DNA of 64,000 nucleotides from the NCBI GenBank assembly GCA_902763555.1, contig CACWSI010000001.1:7215-71214 (forward strand), in the 5' to 3' direction. Positions 21,956 through 64,000 of the stretch are shown piece by piece. This DNA comes from an uncultured Erysipelotrichaceae bacterium. Its GTDB lineage: Bacteria > Bacillota_I > Bacilli_A > RFN20 > CAG-826. The first letter of the stretch is position 1, and every line of letters starts with the position of its first letter. A program made the position numbers and the translations under genes. Below the pieces are notes generated by a model that was given only the letters and a program-made list of their open reading frames with translations, did not search any database and was not told the DNA's origin.

Positions 21956-24900
21956 ATGCAAATAAATGTTCAACAAATTACTGCTTACTTCAACATCGCT
22001 CTAGTAGTGCTTTTTCTAGTCTTTATCGGTGGCACTCTTCTCGCGGCATTAAGGGGCTTTAGACGTGGTGTATGGAAATCCACTCATAATATGGTTTTCA
22101 TGCTCACTCTTATCATTATTGCGTTTGTCACTTTGGATCCTGTTTGTAAATTTGTTGAAGGATTCGACTTATCAAGATTTATCCACGGTTCCTTATTTAT
22201 TAGGCAACTTGATGATGGTGTAGAAACAATGGTGTACTACGTTCCAGTCACCACTGTGAAAGAAACCGCTGCGGAATTCGTTAAAGGTTTATATTTCGTC
22301 TATGATGTTTCTGCTTCATCAACTAGCTTAACTAACTTTGCTTTTGCAATCGCGGAATCCGCTATCAAGATTGTTTTATTTATCGTTGATATCATCTTAA
22401 TCCTTATCTTTGGTAATCTTTTCTCATTCATTACTTGGTATGCGATTGGTCAACATCTCATTCCAAAGTTTGTGAGAACCACAGTTAAAGTTAGATGGTT
22501 AGGCGCTATAGAAACAGCGGTTACTTTTGTGGTAACTACTGCCTTATTCTTCACACCTTTAACATCATTAGTTAATACACTCAATCAATCCTATCAAAAG
22601 AATAAACCAAATTCAGATAATGAAATCGTCATGAATGTTGGTAACTTTGTGGATGCTTATAATAACTCCTTATTCGCTAAAATCTTATTCAACTGGACTG
22701 CTGATGAAAACGGTATGACTTTTGATACCAAATTCTTCTCCACCTTTACCACAGGTATCAGTGAAGATGTGTCTATTAGTCTATTAAAAGAATTCTCTAA
22801 TGCTTCTAGCATTTTAGTAAACGCTATTTCTGGCATCACCAACGAAAGCGGCCAAGTTACTTATGATTACACTAAATTAATCACTAAAGAAATTGTCGAT
22901 TCAACGTTCTCTGCTTTAACTAAATCCGAACTCTTAACAACCATTCTTCCTTTAGCGGTTGATATTGTTTTAAATAGCAACATTCTTGAAGGCTATATTC
23001 CAACTCGTTTGTTAGACTTAAGCGATGTGGAATGGAAAAACGAACTCAGTAACGTCCAAGAAATGATTGATGCCTTATTCGATAGTGGTGTCATGGATTC
23101 AGTATTGGTCGCCGATGAAACAGGCCATCGAGAATTCCGCTCATTTGGTGGTCAAGATGTCGTCGACTTTATTGACGAAATCATTAATAAACCAAACTTT
23201 GATGAAGTACTTAATGTCTTTAGAACGCTCGATAATTCCAAACTCTTAGCCCGTGTTGTTCCTGCTCTTATCACCTATTTCAAGTCCGTAAACGACACTG
23301 ATGAAATGGAAAGATATTTACCATTATCTTGGGATGAAATTTGTGAATTGAAATGGGGCTATGAATGCTACGTCTTATTTGACTTCTTACATAAAACAGC
23401 AACTATTGACCGTGACTTCTTAAAAGCCGTCCTTATTAAAGCGGGTACATATATCCCAGAGGAAGGTCAAGAAGTTAAAAAACTTGAACAAATCATCTCC
23501 GAACACGCTGATGATTTCTGCGATTTAATCGTTGGTAAGATGAATACTGAGGGTGAACTTATTGATGTCGATAGTTCAGGACGTACTGTTGTCTTTAAAA
23601 ATGGCAAACGTCTGGAAGGTAAAAACTATTGCTTATTCGATATGATGCTCTTTGAAAAGGCCTTACCACGTATTCTTGACCAACTATTTGATTTACCAAT
23701 GATGGATCAATTCGATGGCAAGATTTCTAGTGAAGATATTTCTGATTTCGGCAAAGCCGTGCAAAAACTAAATATCGGTAAAGTCCTTGTTAACTATAAG
23801 AAAGAATTCCATTCAGTCTTAGATGTCATTGCCACACTAGGCAAAGACGTCCAATTAGTGGAAGCTTTTAGTGCGCCTAATGGTCTTAATTCTTTAATGG
23901 AAGAAGAAGGTAAAATCTTCACCATTGAAAGGGTTCATATCAATTACTTACAACAAGCCATCGCTAAGATGAGTAAATCCTCATTAATTTATTCTGCGAT
24001 TGTTCCAATCGTTAAATCATTTATCGCTGATCCAAGTGTCGCTGATAGTCTTAATGACTTTGGCATTAACACAGATGTCATTGTCAGTGCGATTAGTAAA
24101 GACATGAAGAAAGATGAACAACATCGTTCATTCTTTGGTGATTTAAGTACCTTACTTGATAGCTGGGATGATTTAGGCAGAATCTATAGTGTTGTTGAAT
24201 CCGGTAATAGTGATAACTTAATGGAACAATTCAAAGATGAAACTTTAGTGGATGCTTTCGTTAATATCTTAAGTGCTTTATTTACTAACCCAATTATTAA
24301 TCCAGAGCCAGAACCAGGCGATTGGTATGAAAAGAACGAAAACCTGTATGGTATTCTAGGATTTGTCTTTGATATGACTTCTAGCATTGGCTTAACTGTT
24401 ACTAGAGAAAGAATGAGAGAAGTTGAAACATATCATGGTTGGACTGGTGATAACGGTGAATTCCAAGCCATTGGTAATATCATTAAATACATTGCCACTC
24501 ACGATGTCTTAAAAGCTGCGGATATGTTCGCTAATGGCTTATCTAGAACATCTTTAACTAACTTAAAAGAAGAGGGCGAAGGAAAAGTTGGTCTACCAAA
24601 ACTCTTCGAACTCGTTAATGAATCATATATCTTTAAAACCTCATTAGGACCATTCCTAGATAACATGTTTGGTGATGCCTTAAGTGGTTTCTTGATTGAT
24701 ACTGGCACTAATGTCTCGTTCTCTAACATTTTAGACTGGGCGGAAGAAGGCCAAAACATCGCTAACTTACTAGGTTCTTTAATTAATCTCACTCCAGCGG
24801 ATGATAGTGAAGCTAAAGACTTCTTAACTAACTTTGATATTTCTACACTTCACGATATCGTCGAACTTAACTATATGCTCCACTCATTATCACATAGTGG

Positions 24901-27900
24901 TATTTATACCTATGTTGATGAAAACGGTATCAACCATTATCAATTTGGTGCTTGGTTCTATCAAAAGATTAGTGACGCAATGGTGAAGTTCACTGTAAAC
25001 GCTAATGAATACGATTTACTTGCTGATCCAAAACCAGGAGAAAATGCTTCTTGGAGTTGGAAAGACAGTTGGGGCATTAAGCCAGGTAATGCAAATGCAG
25101 ATCCATATTTTGAAGAATATGCCGCTAAATATAATCCAGATGGTACACAAGTCGATACCCATATGATTGCCTATCGTGACTTTGTATATCTTAATGGTAA
25201 ACCTAATACTGATGAATCAGTACCAACTGATTGGTGTGATTATACCAACTTCATAACTAAACAAGCGGCCTTCTTAACCGCTCATGAAGCGGACTTAACT
25301 GGTTCTTATGCCGTTAATGATTGGAACGCATATTTTGCGAGTGATGATTTCATCGCTGATTATAATGATGTCTTTGAAGTTGATGAAATATCTCGTGTCT
25401 GTAAGTTCTTATGTTACGCCTTACGCGTTATGGAAAAGAGAAGTTCTGGTCCAAATGCTGGTACACAGATTCCTTTAAATAAATTACCAATCCCAGTATT
25501 AGATGGCTTATTAACATCGATTAACGATACAAGCTGCTTACGTATTTGTTTATATAACTTCTACCGTGTCGCTGATGAAAACTTATTAACAGGTTATAGT
25601 GCATTTAACACTGCTTCTTCTTATAACATTTATATCGTGGACGGGGAATGTCCAATTATGGACTTCACTAATGGTCGTCCTAATAGACAAGCAGAAATTA
25701 ATAAATTAATGGGCTTCTACCGTGTTCTTGATGAGGCTAACAATAATGGTGTTATCAATGGTAGTGACTTTGATTATTCCAAGATGAATCAAGGTGACTT
25801 CTTAAATAAGATGAAAGAGGCCATTATTGACTTCAATAGTTCTTATGTCTTCCATCGTTCTGGCTCAGGTAGAGTTAATAGTTTAACTACCTTCCAAGGT
25901 TTATTTAATTCCATGCTTTCACAAAGCAGTGTGAAGGATGTCATCTATTTAGGTGAAAAATCCCCTAAAGACGCGAATGCCACAAATTACACAACTAAAG
26001 AAGGTAAGATTGAATATCTCGTCACATCCACCTTCTTAACTGATAAGCAAATTAATGATGGTGCTTATAACTTTAACGAACAAAGAAATAAACAAGTTAA
26101 TGAAATCAATACTCTCATGGACTGTGTCGATTCCTTATATTCCTTAAAGGACAGCGAAGGTCATGCGACAACCGCCATTAACCAAGCGGATATGAACAAT
26201 AACGATAATATCGATATTATTGAAACATTGTTCAATAGACTTAATAGTTCCAGCTTACTATATGACTGCTTACCTAACTCCATCTATAACATCTTTGTTG
26301 AAAACAATCAGTTAAGCATCAGTAATGGTGGTCAATCTGTTGAATTTAATAGAGTGGACCCATTCTATCATTATTACTTCAATGATACTGTCAAGAGAAG
26401 CAGTGTGGACTATACCGCTAGATACTTATCTACTGATATTTCTAGCATTATTTCCTTATTAACTGATTATCAAGAATTCAATAATCAACTTAACGGCAAA
26501 GAAATGTCTGATCCAACAGTCTTAAAGACCTTAACTGGTACTGGTGGTGCCTTAAAGAGTGTCCTTTATGACATGCATGATTCTAACTTATTCCATACTC
26601 CAGCGAGAAATATTGATGGTGCCTCTTATTACACCAATAAATTTGATAACGGTTATACCTTATTTGAAGAATTAGTTAGTAAGATTTGTTCATTCGTTAA
26701 ATTAGATGACTTTGCTTATGATAATACTTATGAACTTGATGTATCTACCTATGGTAGTGCTTCCGCTAAATTAACTGCTCGTATTAAAGAAATCACTAAA
26801 GCGGATGATACAGGTATATCCACTAATGTCTATCACACCGAACAAGGCTCAGCTTGGTATCAAGAAATTGATTCCATTATGAACCTTGCTAATACCGCTG
26901 CAGATATGGGTAATGGCTCATCTTTAGATGTCTCAAGTTTTGAACTCGATAAATTATCACCAACACAAATTAAGAATATGTTAACTGCAGTTAATAGTTC
27001 CGATATCCTTGCGGATGCTTTACCAAAATTCATCAAAGATGGTTTTGCCTCTATTAACTTAGGTACCTTAACTTCTTATAACGATGTCAACTATGCCTAT
27101 TATCGTTTAGGTCAAGTCGTTTATGGTGGGGCTACCGCTACATCTCCAGAAGGTAGTGAAATCGATAACATCTATCAAGTGATGAATATCCTTTATAACG
27201 AAGGTACTGAGACTTATCACACAAATATGAATAATATGACTGACTTTGCTAAAGGCACTGATGGTGAGGCTAAGGTCACTGGCTTATTGAAATTTATTTA
27301 TAAGTCACACATCTTTAACACTTCACAAAGTGGCACTTATAAACAATATAACGTTGTTGAAGGTCATAACGTCTCCGCTCAAGGTATTATGCTTTATAAC
27401 TCCTTAGGTACTGACTTATCCGCTTATATTGCTAGAGATGCAGATAAATTAACACCTGCTAAATCAGCCTTAGATAAGATTTCCACCTTATCAACAATCG
27501 TCCATATGGAAAACTATTTTGATAGTGAAAACGATATCACTTATCAAATCGAAGCCAAAGGCTTAAAGACACTCGTGGACTTAACAGATGGTCAAATCAA
27601 TGCTTCAACATTTAACGATAATAACGTTAATACTATTAAGTCCAAGAAAAGCTTAATCTTAGGTATCGTTGAAAGCGCTTATAACGCCACTAACGAAACT
27701 GATCCAAGCCTCTATAAGCGTTCCGCTATTACAAGTGAATTTATCTCAGGCTTATTTAATAACATCTTAGAAAATCAATATACCAAACTCGAAACTAAAC
27801 CAACTTATCAATATGTGACATTTAGCTTTGGTAATGATGATGCTTCAAGTTTAACTCTTGATGATTATAGTGAACTTAACATCATTGAAAGAAATGGTTT

Positions 27901-28240
27901 AGAAGGTATGCTTGACGCTCTTGATTATATCGGCGCTGGCGCCACACCAAGCTCCATGCAAGCAAACCGTGAACAAATTAGAATTAAGTTTGCGATGATG
28001 GGCGAAGAGCCAGGCAAGAATGCCCATATGGCCCAAGCCTTATATCTCACTGAGGCACATCAGTACCTAAAGGCTTTACGTAATCCTGCGATTACTAACG
28101 CTGGTGAACAATTTGTTCCAGTTGATGAAACAAGCAAGGATCCAAACGTTTCTAATAACATTTATAGCAATACTTTCTGCTTTAAAGAATACGGCGAAAG
28201 AATCGCTAACTTCCTTGATGGAGCGACAATCGTAATTTAA
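21956..28240 (+). CDS. giant (2094 aa) membrane-anchored hypothetical protein with CvpA-like N-terminal TM domain
   Basis: Uninterrupted 6.3-kb ORF. The first 200 aa or so hold four TM helices with the LAALRGFRRGVWK pattern seen in CvpA. The remaining 1900 aa or so are Asn/Asp/Ser-rich and predicted helical, with no family recognised. Confidence 0.75.
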   Translation: MQINVQQITAYFNIALVVLFLVFIGGTLLAALRGFRRGVWKSTHNMVFMLTLIIIAFVTLDPVCKFVEGFDLSRFIHGSLFIRQLDDGVETMVYYVPVTTVKETAAEFVKGLYFVYDVSASSTSLTNFAFAIAESAIKIVLFIVDIILILIFGNLFSFITWYAIGQHLIPKFVRTTVKVRWLGAIETAVTFVVTTALFFTPLTSLVNTLNQSYQKNKPNSDNEIVMNVGNFVDAYNNSLFAKILFNWTADENGMTFDTKFFSTFTTGISEDVSISLLKEFSNASSILVNAISGITNESGQVTYDYTKLITKEIVDSTFSALTKSELLTTILPLAVDIVLNSNILEGYIPTRLLDLSDVEWKNELSNVQEMIDALFDSGVMDSVLVADETGHREFRSFGGQDVVDFIDEIINKPNFDEVLNVFRTLDNSKLLARVVPALITYFKSVNDTDEMERYLPLSWDEICELKWGYECYVLFDFLHKTATIDRDFLKAVLIKAGTYIPEEGQEVKKLEQIISEHADDFCDLIVGKMNTEGELIDVDSSGRTVVFKNGKRLEGKNYCLFDMMLFEKALPRILDQLFDLPMMDQFDGKISSEDISDFGKAVQKLNIGKVLVNYKKEFHSVLDVIATLGKDVQLVEAFSAPNGLNSLMEEEGKIFTIERVHINYLQQAIAKMSKSSLIYSAIVPIVKSFIADPSVADSLNDFGINTDVIVSAISKDMKKDEQHRSFFGDLSTLLDSWDDLGRIYSVVESGNSDNLMEQFKDETLVDAFVNILSALFTNPIINPEPEPGDWYEKNENLYGILGFVFDMTSSIGLTVTRERMREVETYHGWTGDNGEFQAIGNIIKYIATHDVLKAADMFANGLSRTSLTNLKEEGEGKVGLPKLFELVNESYIFKTSLGPFLDNMFGDALSGFLIDTGTNVSFSNILDWAEEGQNIANLLGSLINLTPADDSEAKDFLTNFDISTLHDIVELNYMLHSLSHSGIYTYVDENGINHYQFGAWFYQKISDAMVKFTVNANEYDLLADPKPGENASWSWKDSWGIKPGNANADPYFEEYAAKYNPDGTQVDTHMIAYRDFVYLNGKPNTDESVPTDWCDYTNFITKQAAFLTAHEADLTGSYAVNDWNAYFASDDFIADYNDVFEVDEISRVCKFLCYALRVMEKRSSGPNAGTQIPLNKLPIPVLDGLLTSINDTSCLRICLYNFYRVADENLLTGYSAFNTASSYNIYIVDGECPIMDFTNGRPNRQAEINKLMGFYRVLDEANNNGVINGSDFDYSKMNQGDFLNKMKEAIIDFNSSYVFHRSGSGRVNSLTTFQGLFNSMLSQSSVKDVIYLGEKSPKDANATNYTTKEGKIEYLVTSTFLTDKQINDGAYNFNEQRNKQVNEINTLMDCVDSLYSLKDSEGHATTAINQADMNNNDNIDIIETLFNRLNSSSLLYDCLPNSIYNIFVENNQLSISNGGQSVEFNRVDPFYHYYFNDTVKRSSVDYTARYLSTDISSIISLLTDYQEFNNQLNGKEMSDPTVLKTLTGTGGALKSVLYDMHDSNLFHTPARNIDGASYYTNKFDNGYTLFEELVSKICSFVKLDDFAYDNTYELDVSTYGSASAKLTARIKEITKADDTGISTNVYHTEQGSAWYQEIDSIMNLANTAADMGNGSSLDVSSFELDKLSPTQIKNMLTAVNSSDILADALPKFIKDGFASINLGTLTSYNDVNYAYYRLGQVVYGGATATSPEGSEIDNIYQVMNILYNEGTETYHTNMNNMTDFAKGTDGEAKVTGLLKFIYKSHIFNTSQSGTYKQYNVVEGHNVSAQGIMLYNSLGTDLSAYIARDADKLTPAKSALDKISTLSTIVHMENYFDSENDITYQIEAKGLKTLVDLTDGQINASTFNDNNVNTIKSKKSLILGIVESAYNATNETDPSLYKRSAITSEFISGLFNNILENQYTKLETKPTYQYVTFSFGNDDASSLTLDDYSELNIIERNGLEGMLDALDYIGAGATPSSMQANREQIRIKFAMMGEEPGKNAHMAQALYLTEAHQYLKALRNPAITNAGEQFVPVDETSKDPNVSNNIYSNTFCFKEYGERIANFLDGATIVI

Positions 28241-36934: not shown

Positions 36935-37320
36935 TGAAAAAATTCTTTAGCCAAACAATAGAAATAAAAGCCCTTATTATTTCAATAATCGCAACAGTCT
37001 TAGGCTTTCTAGGAACAATATTTCTATTTTGGCAACAAAGAGGAGATATCCCCTTCGGTGTATTAACTGGAGGGGGTATCATCATCCTTGGATGGTTAAT
37101 ACTTTACTTAAGTAAGAAACATGGCAAAGAGACCGCTAAACTCGATGTCTTTGTGATATTCCTTAGATTAACTCTATTGGTGATAAGCGCGGCGACATTC
37201 GCCATTTTGCGTTTACAGCTCAACTTATATATTATTTCGCCAATATCCTTAATTATCACTTACTTAGTAGTCTCGTTATTAACCCTTATCGCGCACATAG
37301 GAAAGGATAAAAATGCCTGA
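36934..37320 (+). CDS. atpI: AtpI-like small membrane protein
   Basis: Four TM helices, positioned immediately upstream of atpB. Confidence 0.5.
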   Translation: MKKFFSQTIEIKALIISIIATVLGFLGTIFLFWQQRGDIPFGVLTGGGIIILGWLILYLSKKHGKETAKLDVFVIFLRLTLLVISAATFAILRLQLNLYIISPISLIITYLVVSLLTLIAHIGKDKNA

Positions 37321-38074
37321 GGAAAATAACAACATTTTCAGTAATTTCTTCAAGATTAATATCGCTGGAGAACTAGTGTCTTCACTAATAGTCATTCTCA
37401 TTATAGTGATACTTTCTTTAATCGTGGGCATTTTAGCCGCTAGACAAAATCCACTTAAAAAGCCAAAAGGTCTTTTATTAATCGCTGAGATAGGTGTCAA
37501 TTTCTTTGATAACTTCGCTCGTGATTTAGTGGGTACAGCCTTACCTAACTTTGGTGGTTTTATCATGGGTGTAGCGATGTATTTATTCATCTCATTTATT
37601 TTTGGATTAACGGGTCTTCCTTCTCCAGTGACCTATATGGCGGTGCCATTATCTCTTGGTTTAGTGACTTTCTTATTAATCCATTACACATCCGCGAGAT
37701 ATACGAAGTGGCGTTATTTTAAACGCTACATCGATCCAATCCCAATCTTTTTACCAATTAACTTAATCTCGATGTGGGCGCCTTTACTCTCACTCACTTT
37801 ACGTTTATTTGGTAACGCTATCGCGGGTTGGGCATTATTATCCATCGTGGAGTATTCTTTAAGAGATTTATCAAGCACACTTTTCTCCTTCATTCAAAGC
37901 GAATGGAATCAAGTGCTCTTAGCCCCTCTTCCACTCGCGATACTTCACGCTTATTTTGATGTCTTTTCTGGTTTAATCCAGACATTCGTCTTCATTCTTT
38001 TGACTTCAATATTCATTGGTCAAGAGATCCCAGAAGATATAACTTTAAACACTATGGAAAGGAGGAAGAATTAA
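37313..38074 (+). CDS. atpB: F0F1 ATP synthase subunit a
   Basis: LTLRLFGNAIAG motif with the essential Arg; polytopic. Confidence 0.93.
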   Translation: MPEENNNIFSNFFKINIAGELVSSLIVILIIVILSLIVGILAARQNPLKKPKGLLLIAEIGVNFFDNFARDLVGTALPNFGGFIMGVAMYLFISFIFGLTGLPSPVTYMAVPLSLGLVTFLLIHYTSARYTKWRYFKRYIDPIPIFLPINLISMWAPLLSLTLRLFGNAIAGWALLSIVEYSLRDLSSTLFSFIQSEWNQVLLAPLPLAILHAYFDVFSGLIQTFVFILLTSIFIGQEIPEDITLNTMERRKN

Positions 38075-38298
38075 TGACCGGTTCATTAAACGTTTTAGCC
38101 GCTGCTATTGCCATCTTAGGTGTTATGCCTAGTGCTCTTGGTGAAGGTATGGTCTGTGCGCATGCATTAGACGGTATGTCACGTAACCCTGAAATGTACG
38201 GGAAACTCAGAACATCAATGATTCTCGCTTGTGCCCTTGTTGAAACCACAGCGATTTACTCATTGCTCATCAGCATTTTGATTTTATTTACAAAGTAA
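38074..38298 (+). CDS. atpE: F0F1 ATP synthase subunit c
   Basis: 74-aa hairpin with an RNPE loop and the carboxylate in ALVETTAIY. Confidence 0.93.
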   Translation: MTGSLNVLAAAIAILGVMPSALGEGMVCAHALDGMSRNPEMYGKLRTSMILACALVETTAIYSLLISILILFTK

Positions 38299-38314
38299 AA
38301 GGAGGTAAAAGAAT

Positions 38315-38857
38315 ATGTCATTGCCAGTATTTAACGCCATTGACGATATTATTGAACAGATGCAAACGATTCCTGGTAAATTAGTGCCAGATTGGTTTTC
38401 TCTTGTCATTCAATTATCTTCTTTTATCATCCTTTTACTTGTTGTATTCTTCGTGGCCTATAAGCCAGTGAAAAAGATGCTCCAAAAAAGAGCAGACTTT
38501 ATCCAAGAAGAAATCCAACAAGCACAAAAGAGTCACGCTGAAGCCGTGGAACAAACTAAAGAAGCCAAGAAAATTCTTAGCGATTCCAAAGCGGAAGCAA
38601 GCTTAATCATTGCTAACGCCACTAAAAAAGGTGAAGAAAAATATGAAGCAATGGTTTTAGAAGCTAAAGAAGAAGTTAAAGAGATGAAACTCGCCGCTCA
38701 AGATGATATTGAGCAAGCCCGAGTGGACGCTCTTAACGACATTAGAAATGAGATGGTTAACGTTGCGTTAAGCGCCTCAAAAGAAATCTTAAAACGCGAA
38801 GTTGATAACGAAGATAACGCTCGCCTCGCGGAAGATTTTATCAATCGTTTAAATTAA
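38315..38857 (+). CDS. atpF: F0F1 ATP synthase subunit b
   Basis: Single N-terminal TM helix plus a long charged coiled coil, in operon position. Confidence 0.88.
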   Translation: MSLPVFNAIDDIIEQMQTIPGKLVPDWFSLVIQLSSFIILLLVVFFVAYKPVKKMLQKRADFIQEEIQQAQKSHAEAVEQTKEAKKILSDSKAEASLIIANATKKGEEKYEAMVLEAKEEVKEMKLAAQDDIEQARVDALNDIRNEMVNVALSASKEILKREVDNEDNARLAEDFINRLN

Positions 38858-38865
38858 TTTAATCT

Positions 38866-39402
38866 ATGAATCAAATAGCCCAAACATACGCTGAAGCATT
38901 ATTCTCTTTAGGCTTAGAAGAAAAGAAACTCACTAAGCTACAAGGTGAAGGAAAAGCATTATCAGAAATCATTCATGATAATGAAGACTTTTTATTGCTT
39001 ATAGATTCACGCTTTATGAGTCGTGAAGAAAGACAAGATATTGCTTCTAAAATCTTGAAAGATTTTGATGAAGATATAGTTAACTTTGTGAAGGTATTAA
39101 TCGCTAATAACCGCACTAACTATATTAAAGATGTCTTAGAAGCGTTTAATTCCTTATGTAATGAATATAAGGGAGTGAAAGAAGGGCTTATCTATTCAGC
39201 GTTTCCTCTTAATAAAGAAACTATTAACAAAATCAAAAACAAAATCAGTCAAATCGAAGGAATGGATGTTGAACTTATCTCCCGTATTGATCCAAGTTTA
39301 ATTGGTGGGGTGAAAGTCGTCATCAATTCTCATGTCTATGATGGCTCAATTAAAAACCAACTTGAAAAAATGCAAATTGACCTTCTAGGAAAGGAGCTTT
39401 AA
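38866..39402 (+). CDS. atpH: F0F1 ATP synthase subunit delta
   Basis: OSCP-like YAEALFSL start and IGGVKV near the C-terminus, in operon position. Confidence 0.88.
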   Translation: MNQIAQTYAEALFSLGLEEKKLTKLQGEGKALSEIIHDNEDFLLLIDSRFMSREERQDIASKILKDFDEDIVNFVKVLIANNRTNYIKDVLEAFNSLCNEYKGVKEGLIYSAFPLNKETINKIKNKISQIEGMDVELISRIDPSLIGGVKVVINSHVYDGSIKNQLEKMQIDLLGKEL

Positions 39403-40911
<1,509 letters not shown>

Positions 40912-40917
40912 TAGTGT

Positions 40918-43563
<2,646 letters not shown>

Positions 43564-44138: not shown

Positions 44139-44650
44139 TGCTTCATATCGTCTTATATCGTCCAGAAAAGCCGCAGAATACTGGTAACATTATGCGTACA
44201 TGTGTCGCTATTCACGCCACATTACACATCATTGGGCCAATTACTTTTTCTATTGACTCTAAAGACCTCAAAAGAGTGGGCATGGATTATATTGATGATT
44301 TAAAAATGCACTTTTATAAAGACTATGAAACTTTTGTAAAAGAAAATCCTAACGCTGATACATATTATGTGACTAGATACGCAAAAACTGTTTATTCAAC
44401 ATATGATTTATCTAATCCTTCCAGAAATATCTATTTAATGTTTGGAAGAGAATCAACTGGCATACCTCATGATATCTTAAAAATGCATGAAGATAGATTA
44501 ATGCGTATACCAATGGTCCCTGAAGCAAGAAGCCTAAATCTATCTAACTGTGTTGCTTTAGTGGCCTATGAAGTTCTTAGACAACAAAAATTCCCTGACT
44601 TAGCGACAGAGGAAGCGATTAAAGGACCAGATTTCTTATTTAAGGATTAA
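44138..44650 (+). CDS. trmL: tRNA (cytidine/uridine-34 2'-O)-methyltransferase TrmL (SpoU family)
   Basis: Near-colinear with E. coli TrmL: IVLYRPEKPQNTGNIMRTC ... MFGRESTGIP ... RIPMVPEARSLNLSNCVALVAYE. Confidence 0.9.
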   Translation: MLHIVLYRPEKPQNTGNIMRTCVAIHATLHIIGPITFSIDSKDLKRVGMDYIDDLKMHFYKDYETFVKENPNADTYYVTRYAKTVYSTYDLSNPSRNIYLMFGRESTGIPHDILKMHEDRLMRIPMVPEARSLNLSNCVALVAYEVLRQQKFPDLATEEAIKGPDFLFKD

Positions 44651-46020
44651 TAGTCTTGTTTATTAGAAAGTAATGCGATTGTTTCTTCTCTTACTTTATT
44701 CAAAGTAATCGTGGAATAGTTAAGTAAATTAGCCTCGCCTAAAGCGTGGCCTTTTTTAACATTCTTCATGTTGGTGATCATAATATCGCCCGCTGTTTTG
44801 TTAGAGAGGATTAAACAGAGTTCCGCGGCCACTAATTTAACTGCGTTACTTGGATTAGGATTATGAATAATAACATGAGCGCCATGATAATCCTTGATAT
44901 GTAAATACCAGTCCTCTTTATTAGCGATTTTAAAAGTTAATTCGTTATTGCTAGAAGCATTCTTACCAAAAGAAATCTTCACATTATCATAAATGATATA
45001 TGAGCATCTAATTGGTAATAATTTTTTCTTTAAATGCTGTTTAGGAAGTAGTTCTTGGCTTAAAGAGAATAATTCTTCATCATCCATATATTGAGAGCTC
45101 ACTAATAAGTAGGAAAGATATTCTTCCTCTTCTTTAGCTTTATTAATTTCTAATTCCGCCATCTCAATCGTGCGTTTGCTCTTTTTGTATTTCTTAAACA
45201 TCGCATTCGCGTTTTCAACGATGCTCTTAGATTCATCTAGTTTAATATTGTTATCTTTAAGATATTCATCTAATAATTCTTTATCAGATTGGAACGCTAA
45301 TAAGTAGTTACCATGATCAGCATCGTTTAGATGTTCTTTCGCGGATTCTATTTCACCTCTTAAAACAACGCTCTTTTTATCAAGTGATTTAATACGACTT
45401 TTAATATAACGATATAGTGGTGTGAACTTTTCTTTCTTATGCACTTGTAAGGCATTTTCATAATAATTCACAGCTTGTTTTTTAATATCTTGCAAAGAAG
45501 GAACTTCATTTTCTTCTTTTAATACACCTTTATTAGGATATTCATAACTTAAACCATTTAATATCGGTCTAGCGCTTGTCACACTTGCGTAATGTAAAGC
45601 ATGGATAATCTTGTCTTCTTCATTTACAAATAAGAGATTAGCTCTTTGAGGAATACATTCTAAATATAAATGAGTAACGACTTTCTCATAGTAGTCATTA
45701 GCCTTTTGAATAACGAATTCCACAATACGGTCATCATTATTCAAATTAACATCTACGATATAGGCATCCTTTAAGAATTTTCTTAAAGACTCATTTAAAT
45801 TACCCATAATCGTGGGTTCTACTTTTTTAACATTAATTAAGGCTAAAAATGGATGTTGATGATTAAGAGAAATAAGTAACTTTTCATCTTTAATCATTGA
45901 TAGTGTGCATAAGAAATCATGAGAGTTAATCACTGTAATGTTATTGATTCTACAACCAATGATTTTCCTTCTTAATTCATCAATGACTTTCTTAAATGCA
46001 GTGTAAGAATAGTAGTTCAT
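44647..46020 (-). CDS. rqcH: NFACT-family protein (FbpA/RqcH-like ribosome quality-control factor), short form
   Basis: N-terminal NFACT-N-like region, central coiled coil, and C-terminal NFACT-R/DUF814 motif WYLHIKDYHGAHVII. Confidence 0.7.
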   Translation of the reverse strand: MNYYSYTAFKKVIDELRRKIIGCRINNITVINSHDFLCTLSMIKDEKLLISLNHQHPFLALINVKKVEPTIMGNLNESLRKFLKDAYIVDVNLNNDDRIVEFVIQKANDYYEKVVTHLYLECIPQRANLLFVNEEDKIIHALHYASVTSARPILNGLSYEYPNKGVLKEENEVPSLQDIKKQAVNYYENALQVHKKEKFTPLYRYIKSRIKSLDKKSVVLRGEIESAKEHLNDADHGNYLLAFQSDKELLDEYLKDNNIKLDESKSIVENANAMFKKYKKSKRTIEMAELEINKAKEEEEYLSYLLVSSQYMDDEELFSLSQELLPKQHLKKKLLPIRCSYIIYDNVKISFGKNASSNNELTFKIANKEDWYLHIKDYHGAHVIIHNPNPSNAVKLVAAELCLILSNKTAGDIMITNMKNVKKGHALGEANLLNYSTITLNKVREETIALLSNKQDY

Positions 46021-46124
46021 ACCTACAGTTAGTTTAACAAATTAATTGACATTAAACATCGTCTTTTTATTTCTCCTTCAAAATAATATAAAGATGATAT
46101 ATCTTATTTATAAGGAGACCTAAT

Positions 46125-49100
46125 ATGTCATTTAGCTTTGCGAGCTATTGTTTTGACAAATACAAAAAGTTTTTGACTCATAATTACAAAGACTACTCCT
46201 TTAATATCGATTTAAAATTTGGAAAATTATATCTAACTAGAAAGCTATTTGCTCTTCCTGGCAAGTATCTTCCAATTGATTTATCTTTTAAATATATTGA
46301 AGCGCATACTACTTCTACACAGACTCTTCATCAAAAGACAGGGCTACCAATAGGTGTTAAAACCAATTATCATCTTTTCTTGGAATATAACACCACGTAC
46401 GGACAATATTGGTTAGAAGATGCTGACGGCTTTTTACATGTCTTCAAATTAGCGGATAACTCGACTACTCTTTATTTTGATAAAAAAGGCTCTGGCCTCA
46501 TGATGGAAATCTTGACCGGTGGTGGTTATAAAGTCTTTGATGATTATAAAAACTATCAAATATTTGATTCTAATGGCCGTTTAATTCTTATTCATCAGCA
46601 TATAGCGAATGACCATTATGCGGAATTAACCATTTCTTATATGGCTAACTATCCAGCGGACTCTCTTCGTATCTATTCAATTACTGATAACTACAACAAT
46701 ATAGTTTATTTTTCATATACCGCTAGTGGTGTACAAATCTCCTATAACAATAATGTTGTTGCCACTATATCTTATGATAACGATATGTATTTAACTGAAG
46801 TAACCAAGAATATTGGTGATAATCATATCATTACTGAGACTTTTGACTGCGACCCTTTGCTCCACACAATAACACTAGATGATGGTGAGACTTTTTCTTT
46901 AAATTACTATGATGATAAAGTTTCCTATCTTATCTCTTCGATTAATCATTGCCGTTATGCGTTTGATTATTCCCTTGGAGAGAACAAGGTAAGAGTTAAC
47001 GATTCAGGCGGCGTTAACACTTTTTATGACTTAAACCAAGAACAATCATATAATCGATTTTCATATGGTAATACAAACCTTAGCTATCAAACGCTTAGTT
47101 CAGAACATTTATCTTGTTTAGTTAAAGAAGCAAACGATGATGAAGTATTAGAGTTTGTTTTAGATAATAGTGGACAAACCCCGTCTTACATTTATGACAT
47201 GGCTTATTACGAAAACTATTATCAAACCCCGTCTAGTTCAAATGCTAACTTAGAATCAAAGAAAGCTTATTTGTTCTGTGCTAAGATAAGTGGCACAATG
47301 GCGGTGGATGATACTTTCACCATTGAGCTAAAAGATGATGATGGTAATTTATTGTCCCGTCTTATCTATGAAAGAGGAACCACCTTTTTAGCGGCCCCAA
47401 TTGGCATTAAAGAATCAACACAGCGAAGCTTTTACCTAAACTTTTTAAAACCATTTTCTAATTCCATGACTGTTTTTGAGGCTAAAATAGTCCCGCTTAT
47501 TGGTAGTTTTGAAATGTTTTGTTCAAATATCTCCACAGATGAACCAATTTTCTTCTATGGTGATACTCCATATTACCTATTAACTAGTGGAAAAGGTGTC
47601 TATTTAAATAACGGCAATACACTTTATGATTATCGTTTATCTATGAATGATTATCTTATTAATGAAAGATTACTCTATATCAGTGATACTTCCACCCATT
47701 ATTGGTTTAATGATCAAAAAGGACTCGCGGATAATATTTCATCTTTAAGCATCAAAGAAACACAATATATGAATATGCTTTTTTCTTCTAATCCAAAGTC
47801 TATTAAGCACAGCTATATGTATCCTGCTCCTGATGCATTGTTCTATAGAATTAGCGGTAAAGATGATTGCTCATTAAAAATCACTAAAATCTCCCATAAT
47901 AGTGCTTCTTTTCCAACTGGACACACAAATTACCACTATGAAGAAGAAACGACTGAATACTTAGCAACTACTTCTGGTCATGCCTCTATATATGATTATG
48001 ATGATAACTACCTACTTCAAAAAGTGACTAGTGACGATACAAACGAAAACTATTCTTATGATTCAAATGGCAATCTTATCGAAACTGAAACTAGCAATAA
48101 CTTAAATAACGACACAATTAGTGAGCAGTTTACCTACGATACAAAAGATAATGTCATTAGTGAATCAAAACTAGTGGGAGACACTGTTTTCACTTCAACA
48201 TATTCTTATGATTCAACCAATAAACATAGTGAGACAAATTATCCAAATTTATTAACTGAAACTCATTTCTTTGACTCTATAACAAAAGAAAGAGAAACAG
48301 GCATTAGATTTAGTAGTAGTGACTCCCTTTATATCGAACAAAATAATAATTACATCGCTGAAGACACTTATTCTTTATCAACTGATGGGAATACTCATCT
48401 TATTGGTTCATATCATGGTGAAGTCTGCGCAATAGAATATAACAATAACCAAACATTAGAAATTGAATATGTACCAAACATCCATCAAGACATCGTCATG
48501 AATTATAGTTATTGTTATCGCTTTGCTAATGGATATGAATATTATGATGAATACGATAATTTTAGAAGAATCATCTCTAGTGATGGTGTTACCTACGATT
48601 ACGATGATTATAATAATGTCACATCAATAACTGACCCATTCGTGCAAGAAATTGATCCAAATAACGATCCAGACATAACTTATGAATATGATTACTATGA
48701 CCAATTAGTGGCAACCTCTATTGCGTATAATAACTTATCAATGACCTATCAATACGATAAATATCATCGTTTAATAAGTACTTCTTCGTTGTACGATACT
48801 TCTTTTGAATACCATGATACCGAAGACATGGAAAAAGTTATCAAAAAGACTTTGATAGAAGATGGTTCAGAATCTTTAGTTATTGAAGATGAAGTCGATG
48901 CTTTTAAGCGCCTAACAAAAAGGTCTATTGGTATCAATAATAAATATTCCTATGTTCAATATGAGTATTATCATGGTGATTTAGATAATAGTAGAACTAA
49001 TAAACTCATTAAAAAAGCTTCCTACTATAATATCATCAATCATCTGCCTTTCTTGGAACGAATTGATGAATATGAATACGATAGTGTTGGTAACATTAAT

Positions 49101-50468
49101 AAAATCACAACGACTGTTGGTCAAACCACCCATACTATTAATTATTATTACGATAAATATTCAAGACTTATCAAAGAAGAAAACGAATGGTTCAATAAAG
49201 CTTATCAATATAGTTATGATGATAAAGGAAATATTATTAAGATTAGTAGTTCAGACTATCCTCAAACTGGTCCTATCTTTCCATTTAACCCATTTGTCAT
49301 TAATACGCATTTTTACGACAGCACCTATCCTGATAGATTAATTAGATTCGTGCTTGATAGTTTAGCATATGATAATTATGGTAACCCAATTACTTATGGT
49401 GATAAGACTTTAACTTGGACCAGAGGAACTTTGCTCTCGTCTATTACTGAAGGTAACAATACTATTTCCTTTAATTATGATGGCTTTAAAGAAAGAATAA
49501 GGAAAACCGTCAACAACACCGTTACTACCTATAAATACATTGATAATCGCTTATTAGTGGAAAATCGTAATGGATATGCAATCAGATACTACTATTCACA
49601 TGCTGGTGTCATTGGCTTTGAATATGACGATGATATCTATATTTATGAAAAGAATATCCAACAAGATGTTATAGCAATCAGAAACTCAAGCAATCAAATC
49701 GTTGCTAGATACATCTATGATGCATGGGGCAATCACAAAGTATTGAATCCTAATAATACTCAAAATACTAGTAGTAGTTTTATTGGTAACATCAATCCAA
49801 TTAGATATCGTTCCTATTATTATGATGCTGATTTAAAGATGTATTGGCTTACTTCTAGATACTATGATCCAAGAATTGCCAGATTCATTTCTCCTGATTC
49901 TTGGGAATATCTAAATTACAAAAAACTTCACAGCCTTAATCTTTATGCTTATAGCAAAAATAATCCAGTGATGTATTATGATCCGAGCGGGCATAGCATA
50001 ATAGCTTTATTTTTAGGCATAGTAGCCGTTTTATCAGCGGTTGCGCTTGCTATTGGAGTGTCGAATTATGGAAAGATACTATACGAAAAATCTCAATCAA
50101 ACTCAGATAGCGCCGACAAAAATCCGATATTGGATGCGTCTGATTCTAATAATTATCCGCAAACAAAGCAATTTGACAATAGATTCACGGTTCATTATTT
50201 GATAACTGCCGGTTCGGATAATGCCCATTACTCATTAAAAGTGTATGACTCTTGGCGGTACTCAAAAGAAGAGATTATTGAATTTTTAACTTATCTAGCT
50301 GATTTGTACCCATCGATAAACATTGACAGAATGATGAATGAATGGATCTGGCACAATATTGCGTATACTGAGGGAATTGGTATCTCATCCTCAAAGGACG
50401 TGGATGTTTATTTCAACGCCCCTGACAAATACTATTGGTTTATATTTGATTTTTTGAGGTTTTGGTGA
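46125..50468 (+). CDS. Rhs/YD-repeat polymorphic toxin with unrecognised 157-aa C-terminal tip
   Basis: Many YD repeats (YSYDSNGNLIE, FTYDTKDNVI, YEYDSVGNINKI, YSYDDKGNIIKI, AYDNYGNPITY). Canonical Rhs core end RYYDPRIARFISPDS...LYAYSKNNPVMYYDPSGH, with DPSGH at 49980-49994. AAGGAGA SD upstream. Confidence 0.92.
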   Translation: MSFSFASYCFDKYKKFLTHNYKDYSFNIDLKFGKLYLTRKLFALPGKYLPIDLSFKYIEAHTTSTQTLHQKTGLPIGVKTNYHLFLEYNTTYGQYWLEDADGFLHVFKLADNSTTLYFDKKGSGLMMEILTGGGYKVFDDYKNYQIFDSNGRLILIHQHIANDHYAELTISYMANYPADSLRIYSITDNYNNIVYFSYTASGVQISYNNNVVATISYDNDMYLTEVTKNIGDNHIITETFDCDPLLHTITLDDGETFSLNYYDDKVSYLISSINHCRYAFDYSLGENKVRVNDSGGVNTFYDLNQEQSYNRFSYGNTNLSYQTLSSEHLSCLVKEANDDEVLEFVLDNSGQTPSYIYDMAYYENYYQTPSSSNANLESKKAYLFCAKISGTMAVDDTFTIELKDDDGNLLSRLIYERGTTFLAAPIGIKESTQRSFYLNFLKPFSNSMTVFEAKIVPLIGSFEMFCSNISTDEPIFFYGDTPYYLLTSGKGVYLNNGNTLYDYRLSMNDYLINERLLYISDTSTHYWFNDQKGLADNISSLSIKETQYMNMLFSSNPKSIKHSYMYPAPDALFYRISGKDDCSLKITKISHNSASFPTGHTNYHYEEETTEYLATTSGHASIYDYDDNYLLQKVTSDDTNENYSYDSNGNLIETETSNNLNNDTISEQFTYDTKDNVISESKLVGDTVFTSTYSYDSTNKHSETNYPNLLTETHFFDSITKERETGIRFSSSDSLYIEQNNNYIAEDTYSLSTDGNTHLIGSYHGEVCAIEYNNNQTLEIEYVPNIHQDIVMNYSYCYRFANGYEYYDEYDNFRRIISSDGVTYDYDDYNNVTSITDPFVQEIDPNNDPDITYEYDYYDQLVATSIAYNNLSMTYQYDKYHRLISTSSLYDTSFEYHDTEDMEKVIKKTLIEDGSESLVIEDEVDAFKRLTKRSIGINNKYSYVQYEYYHGDLDNSRTNKLIKKASYYNIINHLPFLERIDEYEYDSVGNINKITTTVGQTTHTINYYYDKYSRLIKEENEWFNKAYQYSYDDKGNIIKISSSDYPQTGPIFPFNPFVINTHFYDSTYPDRLIRFVLDSLAYDNYGNPITYGDKTLTWTRGTLLSSITEGNNTISFNYDGFKERIRKTVNNTVTTYKYIDNRLLVENRNGYAIRYYYSHAGVIGFEYDDDIYIYEKNIQQDVIAIRNSSNQIVARYIYDAWGNHKVLNPNNTQNTSSSFIGNINPIRYRSYYYDADLKMYWLTSRYYDPRIARFISPDSWEYLNYKKLHSLNLYAYSKNNPVMYYDPSGHSIIALFLGIVAVLSAVALAIGVSNYGKILYEKSQSNSDSADKNPILDASDSNNYPQTKQFDNRFTVHYLITAGSDNAHYSLKVYDSWRYSKEEIIEFLTYLADLYPSINIDRMMNEWIWHNIAYTEGIGISSSKDVDVYFNAPDKYYWFIFDFLRFW

Positions 50469-51610
50469 TGAATACAAGGTTTAAAAGAGTGTTAACGATA
50501 TCAATTGTCTTATCGATAGTTTCGCTTTTTGTTTTTGTGTGCTGCTTCTATTTGATACCTACAAAGTATCACAAGGCATTTTTACTGAAACAAACTGACG
50601 TTGTTTTTCAAGCTGAAAACGGCAGCACTGTTTTTTCACTTAGAGGATCGGAATATCCCAGAAGTTATAATTTTGAAAAGAAAAATCATTTCGAGATGGT
50701 TTTGTTCGAAGTTGATGGCAATCGCATGAATTGTAATCAAATTACAAGCAACGAAGATTATATTTTTGCGGCACTTGAAAACGGCAAGGCTTATAATCCT
50801 ACGGGATATATAAATGTATATGATGTGGATTTAAATTTAATAAAAACAATAAACTTTGGTGAATATAATGAGGTTGCTGGGCTAGTTTCTAATGGTAATT
50901 GTTTGTATTATATCATTCGTAATTGGAAGAGTTCCAACTCTAGTCTTTACAAGTACTATATTGAAAGCGATAAGCATATTTTGCTAAAAGACGACTTAAA
51001 CGGAGCGAACTATTATAATGATGAAGACAGACATTTATTTTTTGACAGTTTAGGAAAATTACATATCTCGAGAGAAAAAACACAACTGATGTTGGCGCAT
51101 GATTCAGATGGCTATTATTGCATGACAGATGGCATTGTTTCAATAAAGCTGAAAAACAAAAAACTGACCATTTTTGATGGAACTGCCAAAAAAGTATTTG
51201 ATGCTAAATCTTGCGATTTACTTTATGATAAAGCCTATATCATTGGAGATAATCTTATTTTTGCAGCCTACCGCAATGTAAAAAAACAAAATTGTGCAAC
51301 ATTGCAAAATGAAAAAGGTTTTTGCTTATGCGGAATGAAGGAATCGTACTTATATTGCTATGATATGAAAAATATGCAATTGAACGTCAAACAAACCTTT
51401 AGAACAGGGACTTATTTAATTGATTATGATTTGAACAATGTAGAGTATTATTATGATGGCACCCTTTACATTAATGATACTTTGGTAAGGAAATGTGAAA
51501 CTATTGAAGCTAAAGAATATGTGCTTAAGCCACGTTTGAGCTTAGCAGATACTATTCCTTCGATTATTTATTACTTAAGTTTTTATAATGGTGCTATTTA
51601 TGGCATTTGA
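50468..51610 (+). CDS. membrane-anchored repeat (beta-propeller-like) protein; candidate cognate immunity protein
   Basis: ATG 50468 overlaps the Rhs stop (TGATG), with GAGG 8-9 nt upstream. N-terminal signal-anchor VLTISIVLSIVSLFVFVCCFYLI. Recurrent LYY/IFAA strand-like motifs. Confidence 0.6.
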   Translation: MNTRFKRVLTISIVLSIVSLFVFVCCFYLIPTKYHKAFLLKQTDVVFQAENGSTVFSLRGSEYPRSYNFEKKNHFEMVLFEVDGNRMNCNQITSNEDYIFAALENGKAYNPTGYINVYDVDLNLIKTINFGEYNEVAGLVSNGNCLYYIIRNWKSSNSSLYKYYIESDKHILLKDDLNGANYYNDEDRHLFFDSLGKLHISREKTQLMLAHDSDGYYCMTDGIVSIKLKNKKLTIFDGTAKKVFDAKSCDLLYDKAYIIGDNLIFAAYRNVKKQNCATLQNEKGFCLCGMKESYLYCYDMKNMQLNVKQTFRTGTYLIDYDLNNVEYYYDGTLYINDTLVRKCETIEAKEYVLKPRLSLADTIPSIIYYLSFYNGAIYGI

Positions 51611-51794
51611 TTTGTTGCGATAGCATTACACTGAGCCCATTTGCGAACAAATGTCTTAGATAAGCAGTGAAAACCGGCATACACTTAATATCATTGATTT
51701 AAGTTGTTAAATTATATAAGCGTGAGATTATTATGCTCCATCCTTTTTATATATACTTTTGACGCAAAGATGCATAGCGTAAGACAAAGAAATG

Positions 51795-51823
51795 TTGAAT
51801 ATCTTATTAATAACCATTAAAAT
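51795..51823 (+). promoter_or_regulatory. putative gmk operon promoter (near-leaderless)
   Basis: TTGAAT, 17 nt, TAAAAT. The hexamer ends 10 nt before the A of ATG 51833, with no SD. Confidence 0.5.
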
Positions 51824-51832
51824 GGTAAGCAC

Positions 51833-52405
51833 ATGAAAAAAGGGTTATTAATTATTCTTAGTGGTCCATCAGGTGTCGGAAAAGGCACTGTCAGAAAATA
51901 CATTATGAATCGTGAGTTATTCCCGATGGTATTTTCCGTGTCAATGACCACCAGAGAACCAAGGGCCACAGAGACCAATGGTGTGGAATATTACTTTGTT
52001 AGTAAAGAAGAATTCCAAAGAAATATTGATAACGATAATTTCCTTGAATGGGCGGAGTTCGTTGGTAACCGTTATGGCACTCCAAAAAGCATTGTTGAAG
52101 ATCTCCGTAATCAAGGTAAAAACGTCCTTCTTGAGATTGAAATCAATGGTGCGGAGCAAGTGCTTTCGAAGGTTAAAGATGATAGAGTCGTTTCCTTCTA
52201 TTTGAAACCGCCATCAATGAAACAACTTGAAGCACGTATTAGAAAGAGAAAATCTGAGACTGAAGAAGTCATCCAAAAGCGCCTTGCTAAAGCGGAAGCG
52301 GAAATGGCAAAAGCTAAGAATTATGATTTCGTTGTGATGAACGATCGTATTAATCGCGCTGGTGATGAAATCATAAAAATCCTTAAGGAATTTGATAAAG
52401 ATTGA
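51833..52405 (+). CDS. gmk: guanylate kinase
   Basis: P-loop GPSGVGKGT, TTREPR..E.NGVEYYFV. Confidence 0.95.
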   Translation: MKKGLLIILSGPSGVGKGTVRKYIMNRELFPMVFSVSMTTREPRATETNGVEYYFVSKEEFQRNIDNDNFLEWAEFVGNRYGTPKSIVEDLRNQGKNVLLEIEINGAEQVLSKVKDDRVVSFYLKPPSMKQLEARIRKRKSETEEVIQKRLAKAEAEMAKAKNYDFVVMNDRINRAGDEIIKILKEFDKD

Positions 52406-63744: not shown

Positions 63745-63805
63745 GCCGTTATTATAACAAGTTAGAATAAAGTATCAAAAATGTTTTTAAACTACGCGTG
63801 CGCAG

Positions 63806-63814
63806 TGTTATAAT
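63806..63814 (+). promoter_or_regulatory. extended -10 promoter element for glgC
   Basis: TGtTATAAT lies 25 nt upstream of ATG 63840, and AAAAGGAG SD follows. Confidence 0.5.
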
Positions 63815-63839
63815 TTAAGGGAACAAAAAGGAGCATATT

Positions 63840-64000
63840 ATGTCACATAATGTCGTAGCAATGATTCTTGCAGGCGGCAAGGGGACAAGATTAGGTCTTT
63901 TGACTAAAAAAATGGCAAAACCTGCTGTCTCTTTTGCGGCTAAATACAGAATTATTGATTTCCCTCTTAGTAACTGTGCTAACAGTGGAATCAATACAAT
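63840..64000 (+). CDS. glgC: glucose-1-phosphate adenylyltransferase, 5' part (runs off the window)
   Basis: [51 protein letters not shown] is the canonical GlgC N-terminus. Confidence 0.9.

Follow-up and report, generated by a model that had tools for sequence, protein, structure and literature searches.

How does an Rhs toxin act when its cargo begins with a hydrophobic helix, and on which face of the membrane? Most knowledge of Rhs proteins, whose toxins are widespread between bacteria, comes from Gram-negative type VI secretion system (T6SS) effectors with soluble enzymatic cargo. Here we consider an Rhs/YD-repeat protein with a helix-led C-terminal tip, encoded in a 64-kb stretch of DNA (‘the window’ throughout, meaning this whole stretch) that is a chromosome segment, at 35% GC, of an uncultured ‘Bacilli bacterium’ metagenome-assembled genome (MAG). 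An initial annotation, made from the sequence, had described the tip as an unrecognised domain of ~125 aa led by a transmembrane helix, had regarded such a tip as unusual, and had proposed either a membrane-targeting or pore-forming effector or a tail anchor that tethers the Rhs cage to the producer membrane. We find that the tip belongs to a previously undescribed family that is accompanied by an equally new candidate immunity family. We give about an even chance to the fuller reading, namely that the locus is a polymorphic Rhs toxin–immunity module in which the toxin, chaperoned by its cage and self-cleaved, inserts its helix into the target membrane so that a probable enzyme domain is held on the outer side.

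The tip is a predicted cleavage product led by a hydrophobic helix

The translation of 46125-50468 (+), in which 46125 is the earliest possible start downstream of the preceding stop, runs through NNPVMYYDPSGH directly into SIIALFLGIVAVLSAVALAIGVSNYGKILYEKSQSNSDSADKNPILDASDSNNYPQTKQFDNRFTVHYL and ends in FLRFW. RHS/YD repeats are present (Pfam RHS_repeat, 24 bits against a cutoff of 22; TIGR01643, 28 bits against a cutoff of 15.8), and the NCBIfam profile of the Rhs-associated core, TIGR03696, matched from positions 1 to 76 of 76 with 61.4 bits (cutoff 32.5), its last position falling on H1290. The core ends in the expected form PxxxxDPxG[LH], with DPSGH at aa 1286-1290 (nt 49980-49994), and both candidate Asp positions for self-cleavage (SPD... 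and DPSGH) are present. Judged from this motif, cleavage would be expected between H1290 and S1291 and would yield a fragment of 157 aa (aa 1291-1447). The region singled out in the initial annotation, 49995-50465, corresponds exactly to this predicted fragment.

The helix reported there directly after DPSGH is also borne out: the Kyte-Doolittle 19-mer maximum of the protein, 2.97, starts at aa 1292, and all other 19-mers of the 1447 residues score ≤1.6. The sequence quoted in that annotation was accurate apart from ten residues, SNYGKILYEK, omitted between the helix and the ‘polar linker’. Its domain is indeed unrecognised but was drawn too large, as the folded part comprises ~100 aa and follows a linker of ~32 aa.

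The tip domain is a new alpha+beta family

With the tip alone as query, a word-indexed search returned one relative only, a C-terminal Rhs module that stands as an orphan on contig L001. The family emerged when 1.84 billion cluster representatives were searched exhaustively with a profile, which gave 65 relatives, 40 of them below 1e-10. Nearly all are Rhs C-termini from rumen or gut Bacillota: the long relatives, of 1430-1835 aa, are Rhs proteins that carry the domain at their extreme C-terminus, and the short ones are fragments or orphan modules. In an alignment of 38 sequences, E1406 (nt 50340-50342), H1410 (50352-50354) and D1434 (50424-50426) are invariant, and S1376, N1405 and W1409 are nearly so. 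The window sequence contains each of the family motifs, [YF][DNE]S[WYF], NEWxWH[NK]xAY and, at the extreme C-terminus, SVDVYF-x2-D, and ends in an aromatic tail, YYWFIFDFLRFW. The segment EWIWHN, which the initial annotation had proposed for mutagenesis, was well chosen, since its Glu and His are invariant across the family. An AlphaFold2 (AF2) model of the tip is compact and alpha+beta, with a predicted local distance difference test score (pLDDT) of 88.1 and a predicted template modelling score (pTM) of 0.80; its elements follow the order beta-beta-beta, alpha-alpha-alpha, beta, alpha, and the second helix carries the Glu and His, separated by one turn.

The profile and fold searches that had been suggested for this domain matched nothing known. 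Pfam gave no above-threshold match and NCBIfam none at all; PDB sequence searches over all chains (phmmer with the single sequence, and a profile search) gave nothing below E 0.03, the only matches, to IF-3 and DnaK, being attributable to chance; and a Foldseek search of PDB with the tip model gave no fold match, the best E being 1.4. The one fold match, BFVD A0A8S5TJ15 (Foldseek E 1.5e-5), is an uncharacterised protein of 114 aa labelled as coming from a crAss-like virus. Scans of genome contigs and metagenome contigs with a two-sequence tip alignment gave no matches, nor did a scan of IMG/VR. An 8-sequence subset of the tip alignment, used as the search pattern because the set of 38 was too diverse, located two GTDB loci. 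We conclude that the tip domain is a real, previously undescribed family.

A sub-threshold Pfam match of the window tip to Ribonuclease_T2 (E 0.003-0.006) suggested a divergent RNase T2-like nuclease, with FTVHYL as conserved active-site segment (CAS) I and NEWIWHN as CAS II. The match scored 17-18 bits against a cutoff of 26 and was found in only 1 of the 38 members; the CAS-I-like His varies, with Tyr in its place in the majority of members, and Foldseek gave no match in PDB, which holds RNase T2 structures. Given the sub-threshold score, the single member and the variable key His, we reject this match as chance and consider an RNase T2 identity scarcely credible.

Distant stand-alone homologues of the tip domain, found at E around 1e-4 and sharing its motifs, carry Sec signals or lipoprotein leaders. 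Such small versions are represented by P0108, P0109, P0116 and locus L015 5001-5627. P0109, which has an LTGC lipobox, is encoded between GDPD and lepA among housekeeping genes, without an immunity-like neighbour, and its neighbourhood gave no clue to function.

The tip is paired with a rare, membrane-anchored candidate immunity protein

The Rhs stop codon overlaps the start of the next gene (TGATG). The 380-aa product has an N-terminal membrane anchor at aa ~8-26 (nt 50489-50545), with an N-terminal flank of +3, and no second hydrophobic segment; it contains 11 Cys, and its Cys-rich domain is predicted to lie outside the membrane. The tip and this same downstream family occur together in all seven loci that have downstream sequence, homologues of the 380-aa protein adjoining the tip in L012, L013, L001, L017/L018, L020 and L022. 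Even the most distant pair matches the family profile (hhalign 99%, E 6e-18). The homologues have 9-13 Cys, three of them invariant, and for all seven a signal-anchor with a Cys-rich ectodomain is predicted. In 5.8 billion sequences the family forms 4 clusters, which makes it very rare, and it has no entry in Pfam or NCBIfam. In an AF2 model built from a 5-sequence alignment (pLDDT 64), an N-terminal helix is followed by an all-beta domain, for which the listed top 50 Foldseek matches were all beta-propellers (TM-scores 0.2-0.35); we tentatively describe the ectodomain as propeller-like.

Immunity genes also occur by themselves: an orphan copy stands alone in L019, an orphan homologue of 292 aa is present in L011, and in L013 the Rhs is reduced to a remnant beside an intact immunity gene of 396 aa. 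From this gene arrangement, we conclude that the Rhs tip and the 380-aa gene form a toxin–immunity module in which the protective function of the 380-aa protein is putative. Toxin and immunity families alike, which are described in no database and so far confined to rumen and gut Bacillota MAGs, extend polymorphic-toxin diversity in the way expected of such systems.

The module occupies a strain-variable site

We compared the region between rqcH/NFACT and gmk with sister strains carrying an identical gmk. The site is empty in L005, L006, L009 and L010, contains a gene for a cytoplasmic-looking protein of 165 aa in L002, L003 and L008, the orphan 292-aa immunity homologue in L011, and a different Rhs (1455 aa) with a 312-aa gene in L004 and L007. 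The 312-aa anchored protein is 36% identical to the orphan 292-aa protein. The tip of the 1455-aa Rhs is likewise helix-first and has the pattern xNSY...EWxxHN...D, and a profile comparison with the window tip family (hhalign 48%, E 1.8e-4) is suggestive only of a relationship. The cluster to which the window Rhs belongs has 2 members, against >100 for the flanking genes.

Downstream of a conserved 149-aa gene there is a second site of Rhs insertion (L004 19364-19550; L009 13810-13986; L010 12776-12952; L013 5950-7363; window 63745-63840). In L004 this site is occupied by an Rhs-size open reading frame (ORF) of 1469 aa and in L013 by a remnant with an immunity gene, while L009 and L010 have an N-terminal remnant of 58 aa; in the window it is empty and an NTP-transferase gene follows directly. 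In P0065, P0090, P0097, P0103 and P0104 the Rhs N-terminus (first 10-30 aa) is fused in frame to the last ~50-95 aa of the tip, and one such fusion, at L013 5950-6180, lies beside the intact immunity gene. Such fusions suggest that almost the entire Rhs gene has been deleted repeatedly; in the window gene we found no direct repeat or microhomology that might underlie them (19/54 identities at the junction, longest shared word 10 nt).

A leading helix is the rule among the closest Rhs-core relatives

When only the final 191 aa of the Rhs core served as query, 711 matches below 1e-20 were obtained, of which we analysed the best 120 (relatives P0117-P0235). Counting was restricted to the 87 in which the cleavage motif could be recognised and the tip was at least 30 aa long, and a leading helix was scored where a Kyte-Doolittle 19-mer of at least 1.6 occurred within the first 45 tip residues. 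By this measure, 79 of the 87 closest relatives (91%) have a leading hydrophobic helix, as compared with 1 of 298 control windows in the Rhs shells of 10 related full-length proteins. The view that a helix-led tip is unusual is thus not supported for this clade. The helix-first tips fall into at least 48 unrelated sequence clusters and include Pfam Tox-REase-9 (P0128, P0190) and TNT (P0183) domains, which must act in the cytoplasm. Given that the helix is present whatever the tip, nuclease and NADase included, the helix alone cannot mark a pore-former. It seems to be a general trait of the encounter between this clade's cargo and membranes. Leading helices in the clade are often Gly/Ala-rich, and many tips resemble multi-helix Gly-zipper membrane proteins. 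In the literature that we searched we found no description of helix-first cargo as a rule in signal-less Bacillota Rhs proteins, although such a search cannot prove that it is unreported.

Within the tip family itself, an uncharged hydrophobic span begins at fragment residue 1-2 in 17 of 21 members; it is 20-36 aa long, usually 20-24 and occasionally 31-36, and its sequence is not conserved. The 20 aa behind it have a mean net charge of -1.7 across the family, the flank being acidic in 13 of the 21 members and positive in 3.

No signal peptide or extra N-terminal delivery domain was found in the window Rhs by hydropathy or Pfam, and no LXG or WXG domain; the shell begins ~25 aa from the N-terminus. 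None of 10 full-length Rhs proteins of the tip family has a signal peptide, and the leading helix is the only hydrophobic segment in them. The closest of these proteins share a conserved motif of ~17 aa, M-x-[FYW]-x-F-[AI]-G-R-[YF]-[FY]-[DN]-K-x-[KR]-x-F-F, at the N-terminus (window 46125-46200; P0053, P0062, P0080, P0082), and the first strands of the shell come directly after it; its role might be that of a plug or anchor peptide, or of an export signal not yet recognised. In L020 (810-1419) the family Rhs P0070 is directly preceded by two small co-oriented genes that are holin-like, one of them matching Phage_holin_5_2 weakly, which hints at holin-dependent release in some family members; no holin-like genes flank the window Rhs.

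A proposed mechanism and its rivals

We propose that the Rhs shell would fold around its own C-terminus and that the core domain would cut the chain after H1290. By analogy with Tse5, the 157-aa fragment would then be kept in the shell with its hydrophobic first 23 residues shielded. At a target cell, the helix would enter the cytoplasmic membrane with its very short N-terminus inward, and the acidic linker would stay at the outer face together with the alpha+beta domain of ~100 aa. There the Glu/His/Asp site and aromatic tail might act on a membrane-proximal envelope component, our best guess being hydrolysis of a lipid-linked substrate. The producer would be protected on the same face by the downstream signal-anchored, propeller-like ectodomain, which would bind the tip domain. 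We place the site of action at the outer face mainly because the immunity protein is a signal-anchor with an ectodomain; secreted or transmembrane immunity proteins accompany surface-acting toxins (Zhang et al. 2012, PMC3482391). The membrane targeting envisaged in the initial annotation is supported indirectly by the anchored downstream protein with its predicted extracytoplasmic domain, by the acidic flank and by the secreted homologues; pore formation, the other half of that proposal, is neither established nor refuted by these data.

Several observations weigh against this mechanism. The tip fold matches nothing of known function, and the suggestion of an enzyme comes solely from three invariant polar residues. 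The linker of the window tip is itself net neutral, not acidic, and the spans of 31-36 aa in some members possibly form two helices, which would give another topology. Confidence in the immunity model is only moderate, with low Foldseek TM-scores, and the window shows no evident route by which the Rhs could be exported. Finally, in relatives the helix also precedes domains that act in the cytoplasm (REase, TNT), and may be a generic entry device rather than an anchor.

A serious rival, which we nonetheless consider unlikely, is a pore-forming or depolarising toxin whose helix oligomerises in the target membrane and is itself lethal, the globular domain helping with binding or assembly. Membrane-disrupting Rhs/YD cargo has precedents in the C-terminal fragment of Tse5 (Tse5-CT) and the C-terminal domain of BiTLP (BiTLP-CTD; PMC9637101, PMC13018210). 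The window helix contains small-xxx-small pairs (A4-G8, A11-A15-A19 and A17-G21 in fragment numbering) and the aromatic C-terminal tail suggests interfacial binding. Compared with Gly-zippers of the TspA/EsxX type, relatives such as P0056 and P0076 have clearly Gly-rich, zipper-like helices, whereas the window helix has only two Gly and other relatives are not Gly-rich. A single helix per fragment is a weak basis for a pore, and the invariant Glu, His and Asp lie in the globular domain while the sequence of the helix varies. Immunity to known pore-formers is typically provided by polytopic membrane proteins (TsaI, Tsi5), not by a large ectodomain protein of the kind found here. The large globular immunity ectodomain and the conservation in the globular domain, not the helix, make an enzyme or a toxin that binds a ligand more plausible to us than a pore formed by the helix alone. 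The prevalence of the helix in 79 of the 87 relatives irrespective of tip type, Tox-REase-9 and TNT included, would fit a generic translocation helix that carries the attached domain across the target membrane to act in the cytoplasm. For the window tip we think this rather improbable: all seven immunity homologues are signal-anchored with a Cys-rich ectodomain, not cytoplasmic, and where the domain stands alone, in distant homologues, the protein is secreted or a lipoprotein.

The helix might instead serve the producer, as an internal signal-anchor or tail anchor that exports the tip while the cage stays cytoplasmic, or that tethers the cage to the producer membrane, as the initial annotation had considered. 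Such a role would accommodate the lack of a signal peptide in all 10 full-length family proteins, in which the helix is the sole hydrophobic segment, and an acidic flank behind the helix is compatible with an outside C-terminus. For the cage to be displayed on the surface, however, 1290 N-terminal residues would have to be exported without a signal, and any tether would be cut at the DPxGH self-cleavage motif, which is intact. To our knowledge, every solved Rhs or Tc structure has its tip enclosed by the shell, a location also described for Tse5 (PMC10684867). A toxin held in the producer membrane would, finally, be unable to cross two cell walls to a neighbour. We therefore regard a producer-side anchor as distinctly improbable.

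Our proposal that the helix enters the target membrane with the domain outside can be extended to the clade. In nearly all of its members the tip is helix-first while the protein has no recognisable export signal, a pattern relevant to the unsettled matter of Rhs toxin delivery in Gram-positive bacteria. The helix after the self-cleavage site might be a general, cage-chaperoned membrane-entry module by which both surface-acting and cytoplasmic cargo would enter or cross the single membrane of Gram-positive targets, the window tip being a new class of enzyme that attacks a lipid-linked envelope component from outside. We think this bolder combination unlikely to hold in full. Should the helix have this general role in entry, the arrival of cargo at the target membrane, or its passage through it, would be accounted for with no need of an injection machine. 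Mutagenesis aimed at a possibly new envelope-directed activity has a direct target in the invariant Glu/His/Asp site.

Genomic setting of the locus

The features discussed are collected in Table 1. The nearest GTDB loci belong to Bacilli/Erysipelotrichaceae MAGs of goat-reticulum and rumen origin. The genes around the locus are ordinary housekeeping ones, indicating that its setting is chromosomal and not a mobile element: an ATP synthase operon lies at 37313-43563 of the window, and priA, rlmN, PP2C/Pkinase and rsgA are found downstream. Elsewhere the window encodes a GGDEF-EAL protein of 762 aa (5002-7290, +) and a 2094-aa ORF (21956-28240, +) that has no Pfam match at E below 1e-5 and is kept across strains in a 51-member cluster annotated as hypothetical protein. 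Pfam annotation of 26 other ORFs of the window revealed no secretion system, and no type VII secretion system (T7SS) genes are present in the window by Pfam annotation. A promoter and terminator scan of the locus gave nothing informative.

Table 1 Features of the Rhs locus (window coordinates)
Feature	Position (nt)	Strand	Basis
rqcH/NFACT, left border of the variable island	44647-46020	-	
Strain-variable island between rqcH/NFACT and gmk	46021-51832		Comparison with sister strains carrying identical gmk
Rhs/YD-repeat protein, 1447 aa	46125-50468	+	ORF and translation
Rhs-associated core, aa 1198-1290, ending in autoproteolysis motif NNPVMYYDPSGH	49716-49994	+	TIGR03696
Hydrophobic helix SIIALFLGIVAVLSAVALAIGVS, aa 1291-1313, start of predicted cleaved fragment	49995-50063	+	Hydropathy
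Polar linker, ~32 aa, NYGKILYEKSQSNSDSADKNPILDASDSNNYP	50064-50159	+	Lowest-confidence start of model, without secondary structure
New alpha+beta tip domain, ~100 aa, aa 1346-1447	50160-50465	+	Profile search, alignment, AF2
Candidate immunity protein, 380 aa	50468-51610	+	Start overlaps Rhs stop; homologues downstream of tip
gmk, right border of the variable island	51833-52405		

Comparison with known systems

Among characterised toxins, the proposed outer-face action has an analogy in TelC/TipC (a lipid II phosphatase) and colicin M, outer-face toxins that are neutralised by membrane-anchored extracytoplasmic immunity proteins. The window module would resemble them in its site of action, its anchored immunity protein and its conserved acidic and His residues. 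We found no sequence or fold similarity between these toxins and the window tip, and the likeness is one of analogy only.

Closer architectural parallels come from Rhs/YD proteins. WapA and other Gram-positive Rhs/YD toxins, including T7SS-linked Rhs toxins, share with the window module the YD repeats, the Rhs core, a variable C-terminal toxin and an adjacent immunity gene (PMC3482391, PMC11217815), as well as orphan modules and strain variability. Unlike them, the window Rhs is without a signal peptide or an LXG/WXG domain, and the window is without T7SS genes. BiTLP, a bacterial teneurin-like protein (TLP) of Bacillus inaquosorum, is likewise a Gram-positive YD-shell with a self-cleaved hydrophobic C-terminal domain and an immunity gene immediately downstream; a transmembrane region is predicted in that domain, and it makes E. 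coli cells permeable only if it is exported (PMC13018210). An N-terminal TIP domain is present in 96% of TLPs, and the Gram-positive ones have Sec signals and wall-binding or S-layer domains (PMC13018210), whereas the window Rhs has no TIP domain, Sec signal, wall-binding domain or S-layer domain.

Tse5 (RhsP1) of Pseudomonas aeruginosa, like the window Rhs, combines an Rhs shell with C-terminal self-cleavage (PMC9637101, PMC10684867), and its shell has been shown experimentally to chaperone an integral-membrane toxin (PMC10684867). In both proteins a hydrophobic cleaved fragment of ~150 aa would need the shell as chaperone, and for both, action at the outer face of the cytoplasmic membrane is proposed. 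The two differ in that Tse5 has a PAAR/T6SS N-terminus and is Gram-negative, while the window Rhs has no delivery domain and comes from a Bacillota MAG; there is no detectable similarity of sequence or fold, no PDB chain having matched the window tip. Unlike Tse5, the window tip has one helix and a conserved globular domain with an E/H/D site, and its candidate immunity protein is a single-anchor ectodomain protein. We conclude that the window module has every testable defining feature of Rhs polymorphic toxin systems, and that it would work most like Tse5 and BiTLP while being homologous to neither.

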